From positions 12,980-76,979 of the forward strand of contig CAZMAF010000001.1 in NCBI GenBank assembly GCA_964564225.1: a stretch of DNA of 64,000 nucleotides. Reading direction: 5' to 3'. The DNA comes from an uncultured Lachnospiraceae bacterium. Lineage in GTDB: Bacteria; Bacillota; Clostridia; Oscillospirales; CAG-272. The notes beneath the pieces were generated by a model, which saw only the letters and a list, made by a program, of their open reading frames with translations, searched no databases and was not told where the DNA came from. The translations under genes were made by a program, and so were the position numbers. Positions 9,903 to 60,948 of the stretch are shown here, in pieces. Positions within the stretch are counted from its first letter, which is position 1. Each line of letters starts with the position of its first letter.

Positions 9903-10796
9903 ATGAAAAAGACAGGATTTGTTGCCATCGTCGGCAGACCGAACGTTGGTAAAAGTACACTCTTAAACGCAATGCTCGGTGAAAAGGTATCGATCGTTTC
10001 AAAAAAGCCGCAGACTACCCGTAACCGTATTACCGGTATTCTGACCAGAGAGAATACGCAGTTTGTGTTCGTTGATACGCCCGGTATGCATAAGCCCAGG
10101 ACTTCGCTCGGCACGTATATGGTGAAGGCGATCAATGGCGCGGTTGCCGACGTTGATGCCGCTATTCTTGTAGCAGATGTTTCGCACAAACCGGGTGACG
10201 TGGAAAAGAAGCTGATTGAAAAGATCAAGGGACAGGGACTTGAGATTATTCTCGTTCTGAATAAGACTGATCTTGCGAGTCCTGAGTTGATTGCCGAGAC
10301 CATTACCGCTTATGCCGAGATTTCGGACTATGCTTCGGTGATTCCGATGTGCGCGATGAAGAATGACGGTGTGGAAATCATTTTATCCGAGGTGGAAAAA
10401 ATATTGCCCGAGGGTGATTTTATTTTCCCCGAGGATTCCCTGACCGATCAGCCTGAGCGACAGATTGCTTCCGAGGTCATTCGCGAGAAGATTCTTCGTA
10501 CCTGTGACGATGAAATTCCTCACGGTGTTGCCGTTGTGATTGAGGAATTTAAGGAAGGGCGCGACGTTCTCAAAATCCGTGCTGAGATCTACTGCGAGAG
10601 GGAGTCGCATAAACGTATTCTGATCGGTAAAAACGGCTCGGCTCTCAAAACGATCGGTACTTACGCAAGAGAAGACCTTGAAAAGTTCTTCGGCGTGAAG
10701 GTGTATCTTGATCTTTGGGTAAGAGTCAAGGAAAATTGGCGCGACAGACCGAGTGCCGTATACGATTTCGGTTATAAACCGAGCGACGAGGAGTAA
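9903..10796 (+). CDS. era: GTPase Era
   Basis: 297 aa. G1 GRPNVGKST, G3 DTPG, G4 NKTD, and a C-terminal KH domain. Confidence 0.95.
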   Translation: MKKTGFVAIVGRPNVGKSTLLNAMLGEKVSIVSKKPQTTRNRITGILTRENTQFVFVDTPGMHKPRTSLGTYMVKAINGAVADVDAAILVADVSHKPGDVEKKLIEKIKGQGLEIILVLNKTDLASPELIAETITAYAEISDYASVIPMCAMKNDGVEIILSEVEKILPEGDFIFPEDSLTDQPERQIASEVIREKILRTCDDEIPHGVAVVIEEFKEGRDVLKIRAEIYCERESHKRILIGKNGSALKTIGTYAREDLEKFFGVKVYLDLWVRVKENWRDRPSAVYDFGYKPSDEE

Positions 10797-51018: not shown

Positions 51019-51735
51019 TTACGTTTTTCCTTTCAGTGTAATGAGCAAAAGCTCGGTGGGATTGAAAATGCGGGGGATAAAGGTGTGGTTGCCGATGCCT
51101 CGGCTGACGATGAGGTGGCGTGCATTCTCGGTATACAGTCCTGACGTGTAGCGCGGGAAAATGCCTTGTCCCGGCGCGTAGGCGGCAAGCTTTCCAAGTC
51201 GCCACTGACCGCCGTGTGCGTGTCCCGATACGGTGAGGTTGATGTTTTTATCGCGGATATAGTCCTTGAAATATTCGGGATGGTGCGCGATGAGAATTTT
51301 GTATCCGTCAAGGGCGGTGAAGTTTTCCAAAAAGGCAAGATCGGGGGCAGGTGTTTGGGAAAAATGCGGAATGTGTCCAAAGCCAGACTTCAGTCCGCCA
51401 ATGCGGATGGCATCCAAAGCGGCATCGTCGTTTTCAAGCAGTAAAACACCCGTGTCTTTGATGAGCTTGCGGTCGGTATCGGTAAACAGCTCGTGATTCC
51501 CCGTGGCATAATAGGTGGGGGCAAGCTCGGACAATCTGACAAGCAGCGCGAGCATTGCGGGATGTTCTGACATTTTGCCGTCGACGAAGTCGCCGGCGAT
51601 GAGAATGAAATCGGGGGCAAGGTTTGTTGCTTTTTGAAGGAAATCTTTTGGAATCTTCGAGTGCATATCGGCGATGAGCAGTACGCGGTAGGATTTTTCA
51701 AGTGGGGTTTCTAGGAAGATATTGGTGATCTTCAT
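51019..51735 (-). CDS. Metallophosphoesterase
   Basis: Motifs DMH, GDFVDG, GNHE and GHAHGGQ. The ATG at 51735 follows an AAGGAA RBS. Confidence 0.85.
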   Translation of the reverse strand: MKITNIFLETPLEKSYRVLLIADMHSKIPKDFLQKATNLAPDFILIAGDFVDGKMSEHPAMLALLVRLSELAPTYYATGNHELFTDTDRKLIKDTGVLLLENDDAALDAIRIGGLKSGFGHIPHFSQTPAPDLAFLENFTALDGYKILIAHHPEYFKDYIRDKNINLTVSGHAHGGQWRLGKLAAYAPGQGIFPRYTSGLYTENARHLIVSRGIGNHTFIPRIFNPTELLLITLKGKT

Positions 51736-51867
51736 GGTGTTTCCTTTCACATTTCTTCCTTTATATTATAGAGGGCTTTTTGGAAAATGTCAAGGGGCGT
51801 CTGTTTGGGAAAATGCTGTTAGAAACAAAAAACTTGACAAGTTTTTTTAAAAAATTAAAAATTCTTC

Positions 51868-51896
51868 TTGACAAATTCTTTTTGCTGTGCTATAAT
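51868..51896 (+). promoter_or_regulatory. Promoter of the T-box operon
   Basis: TTGACA-17 nt-TATAAT. Confidence 0.75.
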
Positions 51897-51902
51897 GCCC
51901 CT

Positions 51903-52165
51903 TGTAAACGCAATGATGAAGGTCATGCAGGGTCAAAAGTCACTTTCAGAGAGCCGACGGATGCTGTGAGTCGGTAGGGGCTGACAATGCAAGCTCGCCT
52001 TCGTAGCGGAGCTTTTGAAATAGCAGTAAAAGGCTACGGTTTGCCCCGTTATCACGGCATAGGACTTATTTTGAGTCCGATCAGAGTGGTCATTTATGGC
52101 AATTCGGGTGGTACCGACGATATTTATCGTCCCCGAAGCGAAAGCTTCGGGGACGTTTTATTTTG
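51903..52165 (+). promoter_or_regulatory. T-box leader (probable Leu, CUC specifier) with terminator
   Basis: GA motif AAUGAUGAAGG, CAGAGAG bulge, and distal loop GGAUGCUGUGA. The T-box sequence AAUUCGGGUGGUACCG is at 52101-52116. The terminator CGUCCCCGAAGC/GCUUCGGGGACG plus a U run is at 52128-52159. The candidate specifier CUC is at 51994-51996, from a manual fold. Confidence 0.85.
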
Positions 52166-52183
52166 ATTGTATAGGAGAATTAT

Positions 52184-53575
52184 ATGAAACAGATTCGCAT
52201 CACTGATACGACTTTTTCTCAGGTAAAAGGACTTACCTTTAAAGAAAAGCTTTTTTTTATTCGTTCGCTTGCCGCGCTTAAAGTAGACGCGATCGCGCTT
52301 GGCGCTCTCAGTGCATCGGGCGAGGATAAGCTTTTTATTAAGACGGTTGCCCCTTTTGTACAGAACGTGACGGTCGTTGCTTCTGCGGGCAAGACCGAAG
52401 AGGAGGCTCGCGGCGCATGGGAAGCGCTCCTTCCTCTTGAAAACAAGCGTCTTGCCGTGGCTTTTCCCGTATCGGTCGTTCAGATGGAGTATTTTTGCAA
52501 GGCAAAGCCTGCACAGGTGCTTGATATGATCGCCGCACAGATCGCTTTTGCGGCATCTCTCGGCGCGAGCGTTGAGTTCGTTGCTCTCGATGCGACGAGA
52601 AGTGAGGAAGCCTTCCTGAAACAAGCGATGGCGGTTGCTGAAAAAGCGGGCGCTACTTATTTCACTTTATGCGACAGCGAGGGCGTAATGACTCCTATGG
52701 AATTTACCGAATTCCTTTCACGCTTCGTTTCTGAAAATCCCGAAATCGCAGTGTATCCGATTGACATTGCGGTATCCAACGAGCTTTCGATGGCATGTGC
52801 CAATGCTACTGCCGCTCTTTGCGGTGAAGCGGGCGGCGTTAAGACCACGATGATCGGCGGTCATACCGTTAGTCTTGATGCTTTGGTACGCACGGTTGCT
52901 TTGCGCGGCACAGATCTTTCGCTTTCGATGGCGATTGATTCGACGGGCGTGCACCGAGCCGTTTCTTCGATGCCTTGGCTGAACGGCGAAAAACGCGAGA
53001 GCGCGGCAACGGCAGTGGAAGCCAAGCAGAATGAAGATGATATTTTATTGAGCCGCGGTACGTCGATCTCGCAGATCGGTGAAGTGATTTCGCATCTCGG
53101 GTACGTTTTGACCGATGATGACGTTGCTAAGGTGTACGAGGCGTTTGAAAGGCTTGCTGAGAAAAAATCGGTCAGCGGCAAGGAGCTTGAAACCATCATT
53201 GCCGACGTTGCCGACGAAGTACCGCCTACTTACGTGCTTCGTTCCTACATCGTGAACAGCGGCGACCGCATTTCTCCCATGGCGCAGGTTGAGATCGAAA
53301 AAGACGGTGAGATCCGTCACGGTGTTGCTATTGGCGACGGTCCGATCGACGCGGCTTTCCTTGCAGTTGAGCGCGTGATCGGTACGCATTACGAGCTTGA
53401 CGATTTCCGCATTGCTTCTGTTACAAGAGGGCAGGAGGCAATGGGCGAAGCTCTTGTTCGTTTGCGCTCGAACGGCAGAGTTTATTCAGGTACGGGCGCA
53501 TCGACCGATATTATCGGTGCTTCCTTAAAGGCTTACGTTACGGCACTGAACAAGATTGTTTTTGAAGAACGCTAA
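52184..53575 (+). CDS. 2-isopropylmalate/citramalate synthase paralog with degenerate active site and intact LeuA-dimer regulatory domain
   Basis: 463 aa. Where the family has DTTLRDGEQ it reads DTTFSQVKG, and where it has HxHxD it reads AVSNE. The C-terminal domain is well conserved (GDGPIDAAF, GASTDIIGASLKAY). Confidence 0.8.
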   Translation: MKQIRITDTTFSQVKGLTFKEKLFFIRSLAALKVDAIALGALSASGEDKLFIKTVAPFVQNVTVVASAGKTEEEARGAWEALLPLENKRLAVAFPVSVVQMEYFCKAKPAQVLDMIAAQIAFAASLGASVEFVALDATRSEEAFLKQAMAVAEKAGATYFTLCDSEGVMTPMEFTEFLSRFVSENPEIAVYPIDIAVSNELSMACANATAALCGEAGGVKTTMIGGHTVSLDALVRTVALRGTDLSLSMAIDSTGVHRAVSSMPWLNGEKRESAATAVEAKQNEDDILLSRGTSISQIGEVISHLGYVLTDDDVAKVYEAFERLAEKKSVSGKELETIIADVADEVPPTYVLRSYIVNSGDRISPMAQVEIEKDGEIRHGVAIGDGPIDAAFLAVERVIGTHYELDDFRIASVTRGQEAMGEALVRLRSNGRVYSGTGASTDIIGASLKAYVTALNKIVFEER

Positions 53576-53596
53576 TTAAAAGAAAAGAGATATACT

Positions 53597-56101
53597 ATGA
53601 AGCTTTGTTTTTCGACCGATTATTGGAGCGGTCTTTCCTGGGCAGAATATGTTGCGCTGGCGAAGGATATGCAGTTTTCGGGCATTGAAATACACAATAT
53701 TGATAAAGATGTTTTTAAGGTTGAGGGCGCGATTTTTTCGGGTGAAACGCTGACAGCGTATCGCTCGCTTGCCAATCTCGGTATCGTGATTCCCTGTATT
53801 GATACAGTTTTTAATATGGCTGACGGTAACGCGGTTGAGGATAATCTCAAAATGCTTGCCGACTATATTGCCGCTGCCAAGAGTGTGAGATGTCCTTACA
53901 TCCGTTTGTATGCCAAAGAAACCGACGGTGAATCCTTTGATACGTTGAATGGCGTTGTGATTGAATTTTTAACAAAAGCGCTGGCAATGGCGGAAAAGTC
54001 AGGTATCGTGCTTCTTGTTGAAACGGCAGGCATTTATGCTGATACCTCAAGGCTTGCCGCTATTCTCGGTGTATTTGCTTCCGACTATCTTGGTGCGCTC
54101 TGGGATATTTCGCATCCTTACCGTCTGTACAGTGAAGAACCCGAGAAGACGGTTGAAAATCTTGGCGCGTATATTAAGCACGTGCATATTAAAGATATGA
54201 AGGGCACGAAGGATCAGGTCACCTACTGCCTGATGGGCGAGGGCGAGCTGCCCGTGGAGCGTTTTATCAACGCGCTTCGCTCGGTTATTTTTGACGGTTA
54301 TCTGTCGTTTGAATGGAATCCCGAGTGGGAGGCGGAGCTTGCTGATCCGGAAATTGTTTTCCCGCATTTTGTAACCTATATGGAGCGTTTTGAGGAAAAG
54401 AAGCACCGCGACGTTGCGATGTATCAAAATCGCGCGGGTACGGGACGCTTCATTTGGCCGAAATATTCGCTTATAAATGAAACCTTTGGCTCATTGCTTG
54501 ACAAGATTGTGGATCATTTTCCCGATCAGCTTGCATTTCGTTATACCACACTCGACTACACGAGAACTTACGCGGAATTTCGTGACGACGTTGACGAGTT
54601 TGCGCGCGCGCTGATTGCAATCGGTGTTCGTCCCGGCTCGCATGTTACCGTCTGGGCGACTAACGTCCCCGCGTGGTATATCGCTTTCTGGGCAACCACC
54701 AAGATCGGTGCGGCGCTCGTAACGATGAATACCGCTTATAAGGTTCATGAGGCGGAATATCTGCTTCGTCAGTCTGATACGCACACGCTCATTCTCGTTG
54801 ACGGTTGGCGTGATTCCGACTATGTCGGTATCATTAAGGAGCTTTGTCCCGAGCTTGAAAGTATGAAGTCGGGTGAGAGTCTGCACGCCAAGCGATTGCC
54901 TTTCCTTCGTAACGTGATTACGGTTGACTCCCGTCAAAAAGGCTGTCTGACATGGGAGGATGCGCTTGAGAGAGGTAAGAGTGTTCCTATGGACGAGGTT
55001 AAGCGTCTTGCTTCGCTTGTTAAACCCGACGATGTTTGCAATATGCAGTATACTTCGGGTACGACGGGTTTCCCGAAGGGCGTTATGCTGACGCACTATA
55101 ACGTTATCAATAACGGTAAATGTATCGGTGATAAGATGGATCTTTCGACGGCTGACCGTATGATGATCCAGGTGCCGATGTTCCATTGTTTCGGCATGGT
55201 ACTTTCGATGACGTCTTCGATGACACACGGCGCGACCATTTATCCTCTTCCGTATTTTTCCCCGAAGCCTGCGCTTTCCTGCATCCACCGCGAGCATATC
55301 ACCTGTTTCAACGGTGTTCCGACGATGTTTATTGCGATGCTTCATCACGAGGATTTTGAGAAGACTGATTTTTCGCATATTCGCACAGGCATTATGGCGG
55401 GCGCAAACTGTCCTGCCGATTTGATGCGCGAGGCGATTGATAAGATGAATATGACCGAGATCGTGTCGGTTTACGGACAAACCGAGGCTTCTCCCGGCTG
55501 TACGATGAGTTTTGTTGAGGATTCGGTGGAAGTGAGAACCGAAACGGTTGGTTCGGCATTTCCGAACGTGGAATGTAAGATCATTGATCCCGAAACGGGT
55601 GAAGACCTGCCCGACGGTGCAAACGGTGAGTTTGTGGCGCGCGGTTACAACGTCATGAAGGGCTATTATAAGATGCCTCTTGCGACAGCGGCGGCTATTG
55701 ACAAAGACGGTTGGCTTCATACGGGTGATATCGCCTGCCGTGATGCCGACGGTAATTATCGCATTACCGGCAGACTTAAGGATATGATCATCCGTGGCGG
55801 TGAGAATATTTATCCGAGAGAGATCGAGGAGTTCATTCTGACATCACCCAAGGTCAAGGACGTTCAGGTTATCGGTGTTCCTGATAAGCGTTACGGTGAG
55901 GAAATTATGGCTTGCATTATTCTGAACGAAGGCGAGAGCATGACCGAGGAAGATGTAAAGGCTTACGTTACTTCTCATATGGCACGGCATAAAGTACCGC
56001 GCTATATTGAATTTGTGAAAGAATTTCCGATGAATGCGGCGGGTAAGATTTTAAAATATAAGATGCGTGAAAACGCGATCGAAAAATATAAGTTAGGTTA
56101 A
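53597..56101 (+). CDS. Fusion protein: xylose-isomerase-like TIM barrel (AP_endonuc_2) + AMP-forming acyl-CoA ligase (ACSF2/YngI-like)
   Basis: 834 aa. The N-terminal ~275 aa carry TIM-barrel motifs (GIEIH, LLVET, HVHIKD, SFEW). The C-terminal ~545 aa carry YTSGTTGFPKGV, PMFHCFG, TGD and RGGENIYP. Confidence 0.85.
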   Translation: MKLCFSTDYWSGLSWAEYVALAKDMQFSGIEIHNIDKDVFKVEGAIFSGETLTAYRSLANLGIVIPCIDTVFNMADGNAVEDNLKMLADYIAAAKSVRCPYIRLYAKETDGESFDTLNGVVIEFLTKALAMAEKSGIVLLVETAGIYADTSRLAAILGVFASDYLGALWDISHPYRLYSEEPEKTVENLGAYIKHVHIKDMKGTKDQVTYCLMGEGELPVERFINALRSVIFDGYLSFEWNPEWEAELADPEIVFPHFVTYMERFEEKKHRDVAMYQNRAGTGRFIWPKYSLINETFGSLLDKIVDHFPDQLAFRYTTLDYTRTYAEFRDDVDEFARALIAIGVRPGSHVTVWATNVPAWYIAFWATTKIGAALVTMNTAYKVHEAEYLLRQSDTHTLILVDGWRDSDYVGIIKELCPELESMKSGESLHAKRLPFLRNVITVDSRQKGCLTWEDALERGKSVPMDEVKRLASLVKPDDVCNMQYTSGTTGFPKGVMLTHYNVINNGKCIGDKMDLSTADRMMIQVPMFHCFGMVLSMTSSMTHGATIYPLPYFSPKPALSCIHREHITCFNGVPTMFIAMLHHEDFEKTDFSHIRTGIMAGANCPADLMREAIDKMNMTEIVSVYGQTEASPGCTMSFVEDSVEVRTETVGSAFPNVECKIIDPETGEDLPDGANGEFVARGYNVMKGYYKMPLATAAAIDKDGWLHTGDIACRDADGNYRITGRLKDMIIRGGENIYPREIEEFILTSPKVKDVQVIGVPDKRYGEEIMACIILNEGESMTEEDVKAYVTSHMARHKVPRYIEFVKEFPMNAAGKILKYKMRENAIEKYKLG

Positions 56102-56132
56102 CTGCCATCATAGCGACAAAGAATTTCAAAAG

Positions 56133-56168
56133 AAAAAATCCATCACGATGTTCGTGATGGATTTTTTT
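56133..56168. terminator. Bidirectional terminator
   Basis: AAAAAATCCATCACG-atgtt-CGTGATGGATTTTTTT. Confidence 0.85.
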
Positions 56169-56180
56169 GTTTCAGTTTGT

Positions 56181-59100
56181 TTAGTCGATTGATGAGCCGT
56201 AAGGCGTATTGTAGAATGCGTTAAGTGCGATGGCTTCGACAAGCGCCGAGCTGTCGTTGATCAAAACGGTAGCAAGCGCGGTACAATCAGTGAAGATATA
56301 GCTGCCGAATACCGTAGCGTTTGCCAGATTAACGGTGTTGAGCTTGGTGCAGCCTGCGAAAGCGTAGTCTCCAATTTCGGTTGCCGTATTGGTGAAGCTC
56401 GTGAGCAGTACGCATCCCTCAAAGGCGTGTGCGCCGATCTTGGTAACAGTCTTGGGAAGCGTCAGTGTGTTGACCTTGTTCAGACCGGCAAATGCGTAAT
56501 CACCGATTTCACTGATATTCTTTACGGTAACAGCGGTAATGATGGGCGCATAAGCTGACCAAGGCGCGTTTTCCATTGACGTGAAGGAGGGCATTGCGAC
56601 TGCCGTCTCTTCGTCGCATACGATCTCAAGCGTGCCGTTCAGCTTAACGGTAGCGGTGATTTTGCCGTTGGCAAGCGAGAAGGTGGCAATGGCGGTGCTA
56701 AGATTGGAAGCTGCAACGTAGCCGTTCCATTTGCTGTTTTCGTCCAATTCGTAACCTTCAGCCGTCTTGGTGATGGTGAAGTAACAGTAGATCGGTGCGC
56801 CTGCAAGGACGTTGTTGCCGAGAGTAGGCGCATTGCCCGTGAGCTGAATCTTTGCAAGATTTACGCAATTTGCGAAAGCTTCATCGCCGATCGTCTGGAC
56901 GTTGCCATCAAGCTTGATTTCGGTGATGGCGGTGTTCTTGAATGCCTTTGCGCCGATCGTTTCGGGTTTGCTCTTGATTGAAATGGTAGCGAGAGCGGAG
57001 CAGTTTTCAAATGCGGAATCGCCGATGGTCGTACCGTAGATCGTAGCCGAGGTGAGCGATGCACAATCCTTGAAAGCTTCGTTGCCGATTACGGTAACAG
57101 TTGTGGGAAGTGTGACGGTGGTAAGCGCGGTGTTCGTGAAGGCTTTTGCGCCAACCGTTGTAAGCGCGGTGTTTGACGTGAATTTTACGAGCTGTGCGCA
57201 GTTCATAAAGGCTTCGTCTTTAATTTCGGTGATACCCTTCGAGAGTGTAACTTCGGTAAGAGCGGTATTCTTGAATGCGCCGATTCCGATGGTCGTCAGC
57301 TCATCGTTTTGGAGTTCAACGGTTGTCAGATTGATACAATCCGCGAAAGCGTAGTCGCCAATCGAGGTGTTGACCGTATCAAGAGTGATGGTCGTGATTG
57401 CGGTGTGATCGGCAAATGCGTAATTACCGATTCCGGTAACGTTTTTCAGCGTGACCTTGTTGATCTGATGACGGTATGCATACCACGGAACTTCGGATGC
57501 CGAGGCGTAATCGGGAATTGCTACCGAACCGCTGATAACAAGCTCGCCGTTGTATTTCAGCTCTACCGTCAGACCGTCGGGAAGATTGTCAAAATCGTTT
57601 TTAAACACGGACGTGGGTTGGTTGCTGGTTATGTTGTAGCCATTCCATTTGCCGTTTTCATCAACGACGAAGGTGGTGTTGTTCGATGAATATTTGAAGA
57701 ATGTCATTACCATGTCGCTGCTGATGACATTTTTACCGATTACGGGAGCGTCGCCGTTAAAGGTAATGGTAAGAAGCGTTTTGCAGTTAGCAAATGCTTC
57801 GTCGCCGATCTGTTCAACAGACTTGGAAAGAGCAAACGAGGTGATTGACGTACCCTTAAATGCAGAAGCGCCGATTTCTTTCAGCGGTACGCCGGTACCG
57901 ACACCGATCGTAGTGAGCGACGTACAGTTTTCAAATGCTGATGCGCCGATTGATTCAAATGCCGCGCCGAATTTTGCAATAGAGATGGCGGTGTTCATAA
58001 AGGAACGGTTACCAATCGAAACGAGCGTTGCAGGGAAGTTGATTGTAGCAAGGGCGGTACAGCCTTCAAATGCCGATGCGCCGATCGTCGTTATTGTTTC
58101 AGGGAGTGTAACTTCGGTAACTTCGGTATTGCCTTTGAGGAAATTGTTGCCGATGCCGACAACCGTACCGTTTTTGTAGGTTTTGTGGATATTAAGCAAG
58201 GTAGCAGTGCCGTTATAGCCCGTAAGGATATACTGATCGGTCGTACCTGCTTTAAGTTCAGCGGTGAGTTCGTCGTTGCTGGCGTAACCGGAGTGACCGA
58301 GAGAGGTGAAGGTGAGTCCGAGACCGGAAAGATAGGTGTCAACCGCGCCTCCGGTGAAAGCATGAACTTCGGTTGTGGTGACGGGTGTATTCACGCCGTT
58401 TATCTGAACGATGCAGATAGAACCCTTGATGATCTTCGTGATCGTGTCGGGAAGAACGATCTTTTTGATTTTAGGGCAGTTGAGAAAGGCGTTAAGAGCG
58501 AGTTCGGTCGTATAGGGACTGAGCGTTACGTCTTCCAGCGCCGAGCATCCCGAGAAGGCGCCGTTCTGAATAGCGAGCATCGAATCGGGAATGACAATGG
58601 ATTTTAAGGAAGTACAGTAAGTAAAGATAAGCTGAGGAACTGCGGAAAGCGTCGTGCCTTCAGCAAAGGTAAAGCTTTCGAGTGAAGAACAATATGCAAA
58701 TACCGAAATACCAAGCTCGGTAACGCTTGCGGGAAGCGTAAAGCTGCGGAGCGCGGTATACGAGAATGCGCTGGCGCCGATTGCGGTAAGCTCGCCCTCG
58801 ATGTTGACGGTCGCGAGCTTGTCACACTTGAAGAACAAGCGATCGCTGATCTCGGTCAGGGTATCGGGCAGAGTGATTGATTCAAGGCCGGTGCAGTATG
58901 CAAATGCGCCGATGTCGAGCGTTTTGACCTTTTCGGGAAGGGTGACGGTCTTGAGAGCCGAACAGCCGTAGAAGGCATAAGAGCCGATATAGTCGATCTT
59001 TGTGCCGAAAGAAACTTCATTCAGTGAAGAGCAGTTGTAGAACGCATACTTCGGAATATAGGTAATGCTTTCGGGAAGCTTTAATTCGGTAAGCGAGGTG

Positions 59101-59882
59101 CAGTCGTAGAAAGCTCTTTCGCCGATCGCCTTGATGGTATTGCTGAAGGTGAAGGTTTTAAGCGACGAGCAGAAGGAAAAGGCTTCCGCACCGATGGTAG
59201 TGACGGTTGCGGGAATGTCTATGCTTTCAAGCGACGGGCAATGCGCGAAGGTCTGGTTCTTGATTGCGGTGATATTCGCAGGCAACTTGACCGATTTCAA
59301 CGATACGCAGTTGTAGAAGGTATCGTCGCCCATCGTGGTAACCGAGTCAGGAAGGACAATGGTTGTCAATGCTTCACAGAAACGGAAAGCACCGTCATTC
59401 ATTGTGGTAAGCGTTGAGGGGAGCGATACATCGGTAAGGTTACGGCAGCTATAAAATACGTCGTGACCGAGTGCTACGATTCCTTCGCTGACGGTGATCT
59501 TGGTTGCCGTCAGATCTCTGAGCGCAGAGTTTCCGATCTGCGTTACGTTAACGGCGCCCGATTTGATTGTCGAGGGAATTACAATTTCGGTATCTTTTCC
59601 CGTATAAGAAAGAAGCTTAGCGTGATCGGCAAAGACCATATAGGTGAAGTCGCCTTCAACATATTCCGGTTCGACGGCTTCGCTTGACTTATTACCGAAT
59701 TCGTCAGTCGTTGCGTAGACGACCGGTGACGTTGCGGTGGTAGTTAACGTACTGCCGCTATCCGTCGTGCTGACGGTTTGACTGGTTGTGGTTTGGACAG
59801 AGCTGATCGGATCTTCGCCGCAAGCGGTGATCGCTGCAACGATGAGGACGAGCATTGCCAAAAGGACGATGAGTTTCTTCAT
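56181..59882 (-). CDS. Large surface lipoprotein with BspA-type leucine-rich repeats
   Basis: 1233 aa. Signal peptide with lipobox (LIVAAITAC), a Thr/Ser-rich linker, then dozens of ~23-aa units of the type LxxVxLPxxVTxIGxxAFxxCxxL. Confidence 0.85.
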   Translation of the reverse strand: MKKLIVLLAMLVLIVAAITACGEDPISSVQTTTSQTVSTTDSGSTLTTTATSPVVYATTDEFGNKSSEAVEPEYVEGDFTYMVFADHAKLLSYTGKDTEIVIPSTIKSGAVNVTQIGNSALRDLTATKITVSEGIVALGHDVFYSCRNLTDVSLPSTLTTMNDGAFRFCEALTTIVLPDSVTTMGDDTFYNCVSLKSVKLPANITAIKNQTFAHCPSLESIDIPATVTTIGAEAFSFCSSLKTFTFSNTIKAIGERAFYDCTSLTELKLPESITYIPKYAFYNCSSLNEVSFGTKIDYIGSYAFYGCSALKTVTLPEKVKTLDIGAFAYCTGLESITLPDTLTEISDRLFFKCDKLATVNIEGELTAIGASAFSYTALRSFTLPASVTELGISVFAYCSSLESFTFAEGTTLSAVPQLIFTYCTSLKSIVIPDSMLAIQNGAFSGCSALEDVTLSPYTTELALNAFLNCPKIKKIVLPDTITKIIKGSICIVQINGVNTPVTTTEVHAFTGGAVDTYLSGLGLTFTSLGHSGYASNDELTAELKAGTTDQYILTGYNGTATLLNIHKTYKNGTVVGIGNNFLKGNTEVTEVTLPETITTIGASAFEGCTALATINFPATLVSIGNRSFMNTAISIAKFGAAFESIGASAFENCTSLTTIGVGTGVPLKEIGASAFKGTSITSFALSKSVEQIGDEAFANCKTLLTITFNGDAPVIGKNVISSDMVMTFFKYSSNNTTFVVDENGKWNGYNITSNQPTSVFKNDFDNLPDGLTVELKYNGELVISGSVAIPDYASASEVPWYAYRHQINKVTLKNVTGIGNYAFADHTAITTITLDTVNTSIGDYAFADCINLTTVELQNDELTTIGIGAFKNTALTEVTLSKGITEIKDEAFMNCAQLVKFTSNTALTTVGAKAFTNTALTTVTLPTTVTVIGNEAFKDCASLTSATIYGTTIGDSAFENCSALATISIKSKPETIGAKAFKNTAITEIKLDGNVQTIGDEAFANCVNLAKIQLTGNAPTLGNNVLAGAPIYCYFTITKTAEGYELDENSKWNGYVAASNLSTAIATFSLANGKITATVKLNGTLEIVCDEETAVAMPSFTSMENAPWSAYAPIITAVTVKNISEIGDYAFAGLNKVNTLTLPKTVTKIGAHAFEGCVLLTSFTNTATEIGDYAFAGCTKLNTVNLANATVFGSYIFTDCTALATVLINDSSALVEAIALNAFYNTPYGSSID

Positions 59883-60112: not shown

Positions 60113-60126
60113 AACAATGTCGAAAA

Positions 60127-60285
60127 TATAGTCGGGGGTGCTTTACGCTGAGACGGCTTTTTGCCGAACCCCAATAACCTGATGCGGATAATGCCGCCGT
60201 AGGAAGATTATACTCTTTTCGGGAAATTTCGTTTTAAGCTTACGAAACCGGTAGATTCTTCCACGGCTTTTGCCGTGGTTTTTTT
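60127..60285 (+). promoter_or_regulatory. TPP (THI-box) riboswitch with terminator expression platform
   Basis: GGGGUGC...GCUGAGA...ACCC...AACCUGAUGCGGAUAAUGCCGCCGUAGGAA (60127-60212), then the CCACGGC-tttt-GCCGTGG hairpin with T7 (60261-60285). Confidence 0.9.
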
Positions 60286-60339
60286 GTTTTTCTTCACGTG
60301 GGAAAAACGGTTTTCGACAGAACGAATTTAAAAGAAAGG

Positions 60340-60948
60340 ATGGTTTTTGACGTGAAAGACAGACAAAAGTTGCAAAGGCTTTGTGAATGTGCGATGCTGG
60401 TGGCGCTTGCTACCGTTTTGTCCTTCGTAAAGCTTTACGAAGCGCCTCTCGGCGGCGCGGTTACGCTTTTTTCGATGGTGCCCATTCTGATGTGCGGTTT
60501 CGTATACGGTGTTAAGGCGGGCTTTGCCGCAGCCTTTGTATACAGTTTGATGCAGCTCATTTTCGGTATCGGAACGGTCGCTTACGTACCCGATCCCATC
60601 GGTGTCATTGTGTGTATTTTTCTTGACTATCTTCTTCCGTTTACGTTGCTTGGCGTGGCGGGCTTTTTCAAGAAATTACAGATCAATCCATACGTTAAAG
60701 TGACACTCGGCTCGCTTGCGGCACTTCTTCTGCGCTTTGCCTCGCATTTTGTGGGCGGCGCGTGGATCTGGTATCAGATTACGAAGGACGGCGCTTGGAA
60801 CGATTACGTTTTCCGTTATGGAAGATGGGCGTATTCGCTGATTTATAATGCATGGTACATGCTTCCTGAGAGTCTTCTGTGTCTGATTGCCGTACCGGCA
60901 ACGGTTGCGCTCATGCGTGTGATCTGGGGCAAGCGGATCGACAGCTGA
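60340..60948 (+). CDS. thiT: Thiamine ECF transporter S component ThiT-like
   Basis: Six-helix membrane protein directly behind the TPP riboswitch. The start is uncertain: GTG 60298, ATG 60340 or GTG 60352. Confidence 0.75.
   Translation: MVFDVKDRQKLQRLCECAMLVALATVLSFVKLYEAPLGGAVTLFSMVPILMCGFVYGVKAGFAAAFVYSLMQLIFGIGTVAYVPDPIGVIVCIFLDYLLPFTLLGVAGFFKKLQINPYVKVTLGSLAALLLRFASHFVGGAWIWYQITKDGAWNDYVFRYGRWAYSLIYNAWYMLPESLLCLIAVPATVALMRVIWGKRIDS

Follow-up and report, generated by a model that had tools for sequence, protein, structure and literature searches.

In this work, we describe a two-gene operon of an uncultured Lachnospiraceae bacterium, located at positions 51868-56101 of a 64,000-nucleotide stretch of contig CAZMAF010000001.1 (here called the window), in which a leucine-type T-box leader precedes a paralog of 2-isopropylmalate synthase (LeuA), devoid of the catalytic residues of that enzyme (gene 1), and a protein joining a TIM barrel to an acyl-coenzyme A (CoA) ligase (gene 2). 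We think it reasonably probable that the operon provides a leucine-starvation-induced entry step of leucine salvage from the fermentation acid isovalerate. More tentatively, the pair may constitute a dedicated entry enzyme of isovalerate-to-leucine synthesis, in which the LeuA-derived pseudo-enzyme, together with a degenerating TIM domain, would serve as allosteric leucine sensor of the ligase. All these elements (T-box regulon, ANL ligase, pseudo-enzyme regulator) belong to known kinds, and no account of their combination was found in the literature searched. The module probably marks an undescribed genetic entry to the long-known route from isovalerate to leucine.

The T-box leader and its specifier codon

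Transcription is predicted to start from a sigma-70-type promoter on the forward strand (51868-51896), composed of TTGACA and TATAAT separated by 17 nucleotides, with 12 of 12 hexamer positions matching and the -10 element extended by an upstream TG. It is followed by the T-box leader (51904-52137, forward strand), comprising stem I with the GA motif, the AGAGA bay and the specifier loop, then stem III and the antiterminator, which the Rfam covariance model RF00230 matches in full (model positions 1-219) with 94.9 bits versus a gathering score of 93 (E = 1.5e-19). In the covariance-model alignment the specifier codon is CUC (Leu) at 51994-51996, with G at 51997, and these CUC-G residues occupy the four unpaired positions directly 5' of the basal stem I strand CCUUC. 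The conserved T-box sequence AAUUCGGGUGGUACCG, containing the UGGU bulge for the tRNA acceptor end, was placed at 52101-52116 (forward strand) both by the same alignment and by direct reading of the sequence. The intrinsic terminator of the leader (52128-52165, forward strand) consists of 12 pairs, 9 of them G-C, followed by a T run (52128-52155), and the terminator region has a minimum free energy (MFE) of -41.9 kcal/mol (z = -5.4 versus shuffled controls). The CGUCCCC arm is common to the terminator, as its 5' arm, and to the antiterminator, as its 3' arm, therefore both structures are mutually exclusive. An initial annotation, made from the letters alone, had noted the consensus promoter and a complete T-box leader with a strong terminator, and had proposed, from a manual fold, that CUC followed by G before CCUUC is the specifier; all of these points were confirmed, the specifier by the covariance model. 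When stem I alone was subjected to MFE folding the result was not significant (z = -0.69), though CUC was left unpaired, and for this reason the specifier call is based on the covariance model and on covariation.

The covariation comes from related loci. The Rfam T-box precedes the gene pair also in a 2.4-Mb Clostridia contig (L001), in a member of Synergistaceae (L002) and in a syntenic Clostridia metagenome-assembled genome (MAG; L004), and in each of them the specifier position of the Rfam alignment holds CUC and then a purine. Altogether, the T-box motif was present in 57 of 84 upstream regions. All specifiers readable in the stem I alignments are Leu codons, mostly CUC, while several leaders have CUG and a single one CUA, and among 36 aligned leaders no codon family other than Leu CUN was found at the specifier column. 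The consensus structure of these 36 homologous leaders, obtained with RNAalifold, leaves the specifier columns and the next base unpaired, and the next four columns pair with the strand after the GA motif. In this helix, 3' of the specifier, compensatory changes were observed from GC to AU in 5 leaders, from AU to CG or UA in 4 and from AU to GC in 8, and in the whole set they affect 15 of the 18 consensus pairs. Synonymous drift between Leu codons, in a frame which a covarying helix holds in place, is strong evidence that tRNA-Leu is the signal which the leader is predicted to read. The leucine specifier first proposed for the window alone is thus found again in L001, L002 and L004, in the locus L041 described below, and as CUN in 36 of 36 homologous leaders with the compensatory flanking helix.

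The loci without a T-box seem to use another control. In one of them, L030, an Rfam scan of the upstream region at a permissive E-value gave no match, and the only matches to CodY boxes upstream of T-box-less loci had three or more mismatches. In L047, L060 and L072, and as a variant in L030, a strong promoter is followed by the conserved palindrome CTTATAGTGCATAAG, about 60-80 nucleotides upstream of gene 1, which starts at position 10001 of these loci; the palindrome lies downstream of the promoter in Acutalibacteraceae-type loci, and no known Rfam RNA was found there. Operons of the palindrome type end with a gene for a regulator combining a helix-turn-helix (HTH) with a cupin and with a second AMP-binding ligase gene (L030, 18303-20550), and the regulator and second ligase may be part of a possible alternative control in such loci.

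Gene 1, gene 2 and their pairing

Gene 1 (52184-53575, forward strand), preceded by the ribosome binding site AGGAG at 52173-52177, encodes a protein of 463 amino acids. Its HMGL-like TIM barrel (52232-52858, residues 17-225; Pfam, E = 5.9e-28) has lost the substrate and metal ligands Arg/Asp/His/His, and its C-terminal part is a LeuA_dimer allosteric domain (53171-53557, residues 330-458; PF08502, E = 5.9e-32). The NCBIfam equivalog models of LeuA, CimA and NifV all match the protein, far under their cut-offs (at best 253.8 bits versus 532). In order to follow individual positions, gene 1 was aligned residue by residue to the solved LeuA structures 3rmj, 6e1j and 3ewb and to E. coli LeuA, to which it is about 27% identical along its length. 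The LRDGEQ motif is replaced by DTTF-SQVKG, with S-Q at the Arg-Asp positions, HxHxD reads A-V-S-N-E, GERAGN is absent, and a deletion of about 30 residues, shared by all family members aligned, takes out the HSSGIHQDG segment. In all 104 family members aligned, both HxH positions lack His and the metal-ligand position lacks Asp, and the Arg position is occupied by R or K in 74 of them and otherwise by S, A, C or P, Ser being present in the window protein. In M. tuberculosis LeuA both Arg80 and Glu218 are essential for activity, which is destroyed by R80A as well as by R80K (PMC10464499). Glu131 of gene 1 aligns with this Glu, and the barrel polar residues D8, T10, E131, D136, R139 and D164 are common to gene 1 and LeuA. 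Taken from these alignments, the prediction that gene 1 is catalytically dead as isopropylmalate synthase throughout its family is well supported.

The fold, as predicted, is retained. The AlphaFold2 model of gene 1 has a mean predicted local distance difference test (pLDDT) score of 88.5, and its top Foldseek matches are methylthioalkylmalate (MAM) synthase, full-length M. tuberculosis LeuA, including the Leu-bound structure 3fig, and LeuA catalytic domains; compared with 3ewb it gives a template modelling (TM) score of 0.90 when normalised by target length. Like LeuA (EC 2.3.3.13), gene 1 consists of an HMGL-like TIM barrel, a linker and a LeuA_dimer domain; unlike LeuA, it lacks the LRDGEQ Arg and Asp, both metal His residues, GERAGN and the HSSGIHQDG segment, scores under every NCBIfam LeuA cut-off and is always paired with a ligase and not with leuBCD. 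The LeuA_dimer domain is the best-conserved part of the gene 1 family. Loss of the ancestral catalytic residues beside conservation of the putative effector-binding domain agrees with the logic of a HisZ-like regulatory pseudo-enzyme, HisZ being the inactive histidyl-tRNA synthetase paralog mediating histidine inhibition of the ATP phosphoribosyltransferase HisG (PMC9734150).

Gene 2 (53597-56101, forward strand) begins 21 nucleotides after gene 1 and encodes a fusion protein of 834 amino acids, delimited by its open reading frame (ORF) and Pfam domains. It starts with a xylose-isomerase-like TIM barrel (AP_endonuc_2, PF01261; 53651-54325, residues 19-243; 81.2 bits versus a cut-off of 31.1) and continues with an ANL-type ligase (54503-56047) built of AMP-binding (residues 303-691, E = 1e-92) and AMP-binding_C (residues 742-817, E = 3.8e-18) domains. 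The operon is closed by a terminator with a 17-pair stem and a T run (56132-56168, forward strand). The ligase core motifs TSGTTGxPKG, YGxTE, TGD, GRxKD and the C-terminal GK are all present and near-invariant in 70 orthologs. Constraint between species is uneven, as the ligase shows 70-79% identity, gene 1 40-45% and the TIM domain 32-49%. Judged by its motifs and its conservation, the ligase is intact and strongly constrained. Among solved structures it comes closest to feruloyl/fatty-acyl-CoA synthetases, malonyl-CoA synthetase and 4-coumarate ligases, and it may be linked to YngI and MbcS. With the ACSF2/YngI-like (PRK12583) and MbcS-type synthetases it has in common the ANL fold and complete adenylation and thioester motifs; unlike them, gene 2 adds an N-terminal TIM barrel and a dedicated pseudo-enzyme partner, and it does not reach the PRK12583 cut-off. 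In case of both proteins, the initial annotation has been borne out: it had aligned gene 1 with LeuA/CimA, reporting the loss of DTTLRDGEQ, HxHxD and GERxGN, which the family alignment extends to all 104 members for the metal ligands, the deletion of about 30 residues being an addition to it, it had regarded the C-terminal LeuA-dimer domain as well conserved, and it had described gene 2 as a xylose-isomerase-like TIM barrel fused to a complete acyl-CoA ligase.

The TIM domain gave an AlphaFold2 model with pLDDT of 93.7, which Foldseek matched to UlaE, Art22 and ketose 3-epimerases, a generic likeness with TM scores of 0.70-0.79 and at most 21% identity. Its metal site, Glu142-Asp170-His197-Glu239, is intact in about half of the 70 orthologs and degraded in about a third or more, with replacements following clades (E142K in 9, D170N together with E239V in about 8, and others). 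Because the metal site is eroded in some clades, a structural or docking role of this domain is suggested. The domain is functionally tied to the ligase. Split pairs of ligase and TIM protein occur in other lineages: in L010 (6286-8795) and L096 (4329-6789) a ligase of 552-553 amino acids is followed by a separate TIM protein of 262-264 amino acids, both without pseudo-LeuA, and the split ligase of L010 is 53% identical to the ligase domain of the fusion. These split pairs adjoin a class I aminoacyl-tRNA synthetase gene (Pfam tRNA-synt_1) and pta-ackA. When the TIM domain was used by itself in a word-indexed search, most of the hits were fragments, and the search served for stand-alone relatives only. 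One such relative, 33% identical, is encoded by the last gene of a Limnochordia panB-panC-panD operon, where it overlaps panD (L008, 6928-8807; L009, 5589-8466); this placement is an unexplained link of the TIM subfamily to pantothenate/CoA synthesis.

The distribution of the pair was scanned with one genome per species. Relatives of gene 1 occur in at least 595 species, of which the best 80 belong to gut and rumen Clostridia (Oscillospiraceae, Acutalibacteraceae, Lachnospiraceae, Ruminococcus, Blautia), Synergistaceae and Peptococcaceae; these 80 are the closest relatives, all represented by MAGs, and are not phylogenetically independent. Directly after gene 1, the TIM::ligase fusion was found in every locus where the contig continues. 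The two genes are in most cases translationally coupled: gene 1 stop and gene 2 start overlap in 35 loci, and the gap is 30 nucleotides or shorter in 80 of 85. The search for the pair and the fusion in other Clostridia, which the initial annotation had put forward, has yielded at least 595 species with a relative of gene 1, the fusion adjoining it wherever the contig continues. Subunits of one complex would be expected to show such strict adjacency and such codon overlap, and on the grounds of gene arrangement the products of gene 1 and gene 2 most likely form such a complex. In databases, where some of them are misannotated as LeuA, these proteins are named only 'hypothetical protein', '2-isopropylmalate synthase', 'alpha-isopropylmalate synthase regulatory domain-containing protein' or 'AMP-binding protein'.

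Pathway genes beside the pair in related species

In many related loci the pair is accompanied by genes which would complete a route to leucine. In L041 a T-box (86 bits, E = 7e-19), its specifier being CUC, heads a single co-directional, tightly spaced operon encoding, in this order, a CbiA/ParA-like NTPase, alpha, beta and gamma subunits of a 2-oxoacid:ferredoxin oxidoreductase, a class IV aminotransferase, pseudo-LeuA, the fusion and an Amidohydro_2 protein. The oxidoreductase alpha subunit clears the NCBIfam cut-off of VorB (3-methyl-2-oxobutanoate dehydrogenase) with 541 bits versus 399, and the aminotransferase clears that of IlvE with 484 bits versus 307. A different order is found in L030, in which pseudo-LeuA and the fusion are followed by IlvE, the NTPase, a ferredoxin-type delta subunit, alpha, beta and gamma subunits of the branched-chain 2-oxoacid:ferredoxin oxidoreductase (VOR), the HTH-cupin regulator and the second ligase. 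Within 10 kb of the pair in the 80 species, VOR alpha was present in 28, IlvE in 32 and either of them in 35, and when only those 29 loci were considered whose flanks are long on either side, VOR alpha was present in 20 and VOR alpha together with IlvE in 18. VOR alpha and the pair share a strand in 27 of 28 cases. The linkage is kept in at least two gene orders and is therefore unlikely to reflect inherited synteny alone. No true LeuA gene was found in the window or in the flanks of any related locus.

Ligase, branched-chain 2-oxoacid:ferredoxin oxidoreductase and IlvE make up the enzyme set for the conversion of isovalerate to isovaleryl-CoA, 4-methyl-2-oxopentanoate and leucine. An isovalerate-to-leucine role, which the initial annotation had offered as an idea, is strongly supported by the VorB-type oxidoreductase and IlvE encoded in the same operon in many species, with isovalerate as the presumed substrate of the ligase. 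In the mechanism we propose, uncharged tRNA-Leu would pair with the CUC specifier and stabilise the antiterminator, giving readthrough, as expected from how T-boxes work. The ligase domain of gene 2 would then turn a short branched acid, most likely isovalerate, into its CoA thioester at the expense of ATP, the VorB-type oxidoreductase would reductively carboxylate isovaleryl-CoA to 4-methyl-2-oxopentanoate, and IlvE would transaminate the latter to leucine. The gene 1 protein would not carry out a Claisen condensation and has kept its regulatory domain; most likely it would form a complex with the ligase and impose leucine feedback inhibition on it. The fused TIM barrel may be a docking or structural domain. 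Such an arrangement would follow the same proposed logic as HisZ-HisG, where a non-catalytic paralog from the same amino-acid system confers end-product inhibition on the first committed enzyme; unlike in HisZ-HisG, the proteins are unrelated to those two and their complex and allostery are predicted from sequence features. If true, it would be a second, independent case in which a dead paralog regulates in the manner of HisZ, here in addition to control by a Leu T-box.

Some other genes recur in these operons. In 17 of 80 species (L041, 13927-14730, and 16 others) an Amidohydro_2 (PF04909) gene comes directly after the fusion, either abutting its stop codon or overlapping it; this gene has no NCBIfam match. 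The CbiA/ParA-like P-loop NTPase is encoded just upstream of VOR alpha (L030, 15020-15909; L041, 5549-6289), and in L030 a small ferredoxin-type (delta) subunit with two [4Fe-4S] clusters is encoded between the NTPase and VOR alpha. This NTPase may serve the oxidoreductase as a maturation or iron-sulfur delivery factor.

Alternative readings, known systems and surroundings of the operon

Several observations weigh against the route from isovalerate to leucine. No VOR or IlvE gene is present within the 64-kb window, therefore the pathway has been assembled from relatives: its genes are encoded together in related loci (L041, L030 and others) and not within the window, and in the window's genome the VOR and IlvE genes would have to lie outside it. 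The T-box is absent directly upstream in 27 of 84 loci. The regulatory domain of gene 1, when compared alone with the PDB, gives a weak match to 3f6g, the regulatory domain of Leptospira citramalate synthase (E = 0.004). The best NCBIfam match of gene 2 is PRK12583, a generic 'fatty acid CoA ligase family protein', with 681 bits, under the cut-off of 832. Finally, the TIM metal site Glu142-Asp170-His197-Glu239 is intact in the window, and a chemistry omitted by the model is possible.

Such a chemistry would mean that the gene 1 barrel, the TIM domain or both are active enzymes, converting another leucine precursor stepwise, for instance a hydroxy or oxo acid isomerised around CoA activation. 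The presence of all four residues E142, D170, H197 and E239 in the window and in about half of the orthologs agrees with that, as do the stand-alone TIM relatives beside a ligase without pseudo-LeuA (L010, L096) and in the panBCD operon, and the many LeuA barrel polar residues kept by gene 1. We nevertheless regard it as unlikely. The TIM metal ligands are swapped for Lys, Asn, Val or Leu in whole clades, and gene 1 shows free variation among the 104 members at its putative active-site positions; both patterns argue against a conserved catalytic requirement; moreover, ligase, VOR and IlvE already complete a route.

In Staphylococcus aureus the short branched-chain acyl-CoA synthetase MbcS feeds fatty-acid synthesis, and this case counts for a second alternative, in which the ligase makes isovaleryl-CoA from exogenous isovalerate mainly for iso-branched fatty acids, sparing leucine, with leucine synthesis secondary or absent. 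We consider it rather improbable: primer supply does not call for the IlvE and VOR genes so frequent in the same operon, no genes of fatty-acid synthesis stand beside the pair in the annotated loci, and a LeuA regulatory domain fits the end-product control of an amino-acid pathway better. A Leu T-box would, on the other hand, suit lipid priming equally well, the pair stands alone in the window, without VOR or IlvE, and short-chain acids are incorporated into membrane lipids (PMC7709123). A use of the thioester for lipids is possible, and it and leucine synthesis do not exclude each other.

A third alternative, to which we give a low probability, takes gene 1 as a structural partner, which for example binds the acyl-CoA product and hands it to VOR or stabilises the ligase, with no response to leucine, so that leucine control would be purely transcriptional. 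The translational coupling pointing to a complex fits this, gene 1 keeps Glu131 at the position of the essential Glu of LeuA (PMC10464499) along with other barrel residues, and pairing with CoA-dependent partners is known for HMGL-like barrels, compare the DmpG/DmpF-type structures among the fold matches. The strongest conservation, however, falls in the LeuA_dimer domain, known only for effector binding and dimerisation, and pseudo-LeuA accompanies only the Leu-specific form of the ligase/TIM pair, being absent from split pairs lacking a T-box. A catabolic role, from leucine to isovalerate, was rejected as unlikely, as the predicted induction by uncharged tRNA-Leu and an AMP-forming ligase argue against it.

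The synthesis of leucine from isovalerate, preferred here, touches on the physiology of fibre-degrading rumen and gut Clostridia, whose requirement for branched-chain volatile fatty acids, compounds also given as feed additives, has been known for decades. Allison and co-workers reportedly observed in the 1960s that ruminococci incorporate isovalerate into leucine. With the VOR-type reductive carboxylation of rumen and gut anaerobes our loci agree in that the neighbouring genes, for IlvE and for VorB-type alpha, beta, gamma and delta subunits, correspond to the enzymes needed; they differ in that the activating enzyme and the regulation have no assigned genes in the literature searched. A Prevotella study of 2020 described the conversion of branched short-chain acids to branched-chain amino acids as 'not proven yet' and assumed a promiscuous acetyl-CoA synthetase (PMC7709123). 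Our full-text literature search returned no account of the pair, of the fusion, or of the gene basis of isovalerate activation for leucine synthesis. The module is thus a concrete and widespread candidate for this activation, in at least 595 species, and its regulatory signature makes the old question directly testable.

With respect to the leader, in Bacillus subtilis ilv-leu a CUC triplet confers leucine control (PMC2494555). The leader described here belongs to the same RNA family as the T-boxes of B. subtilis leuS and ilv-leu and has the same CUC specifier; unlike there, the genes controlled are not those of a tRNA synthetase, of the isopropylmalate pathway or of a transporter. T-box surveys give leuA, leuS, ilv-leu and transporters for Leu, and not this module (PMC2494555; PMC11477304), which widens the known range of T-box-controlled genes. 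The module may also be a clean new case of a biosynthetic enzyme recycled into a regulatory pseudo-enzyme, and metabolic reconstructions made automatically would mistake gene 1 for LeuA.

The neighbours of the pair in the window, where it stands alone, are a metallophosphoesterase gene and a gene for a BspA-type leucine-rich repeat (LRR) protein. The metallophosphoesterase gene (51019-51750) has its own sigma-70 promoter with 12 of 12 matches at 51793-51765 on the reverse strand, divergent from the T-box promoter. On the other side, convergent with the operon, 56181-59882 (reverse strand) encodes a BspA-type LRR surface protein of 1233 amino acids with nine LRR_5 stretches and a lipoprotein-like N-terminus, which is kept in the syntenic locus L004. 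Further downstream, a thiamine pyrophosphate (TPP) riboswitch at 60124-60222 (forward strand; 73.1 bits versus a gathering score of 54.3) lies ahead of an ORF of 216 amino acids (60298-60948), and at the place of this ORF L004 has a Thia_YuaJ (ThiT-type thiamine transporter) gene.

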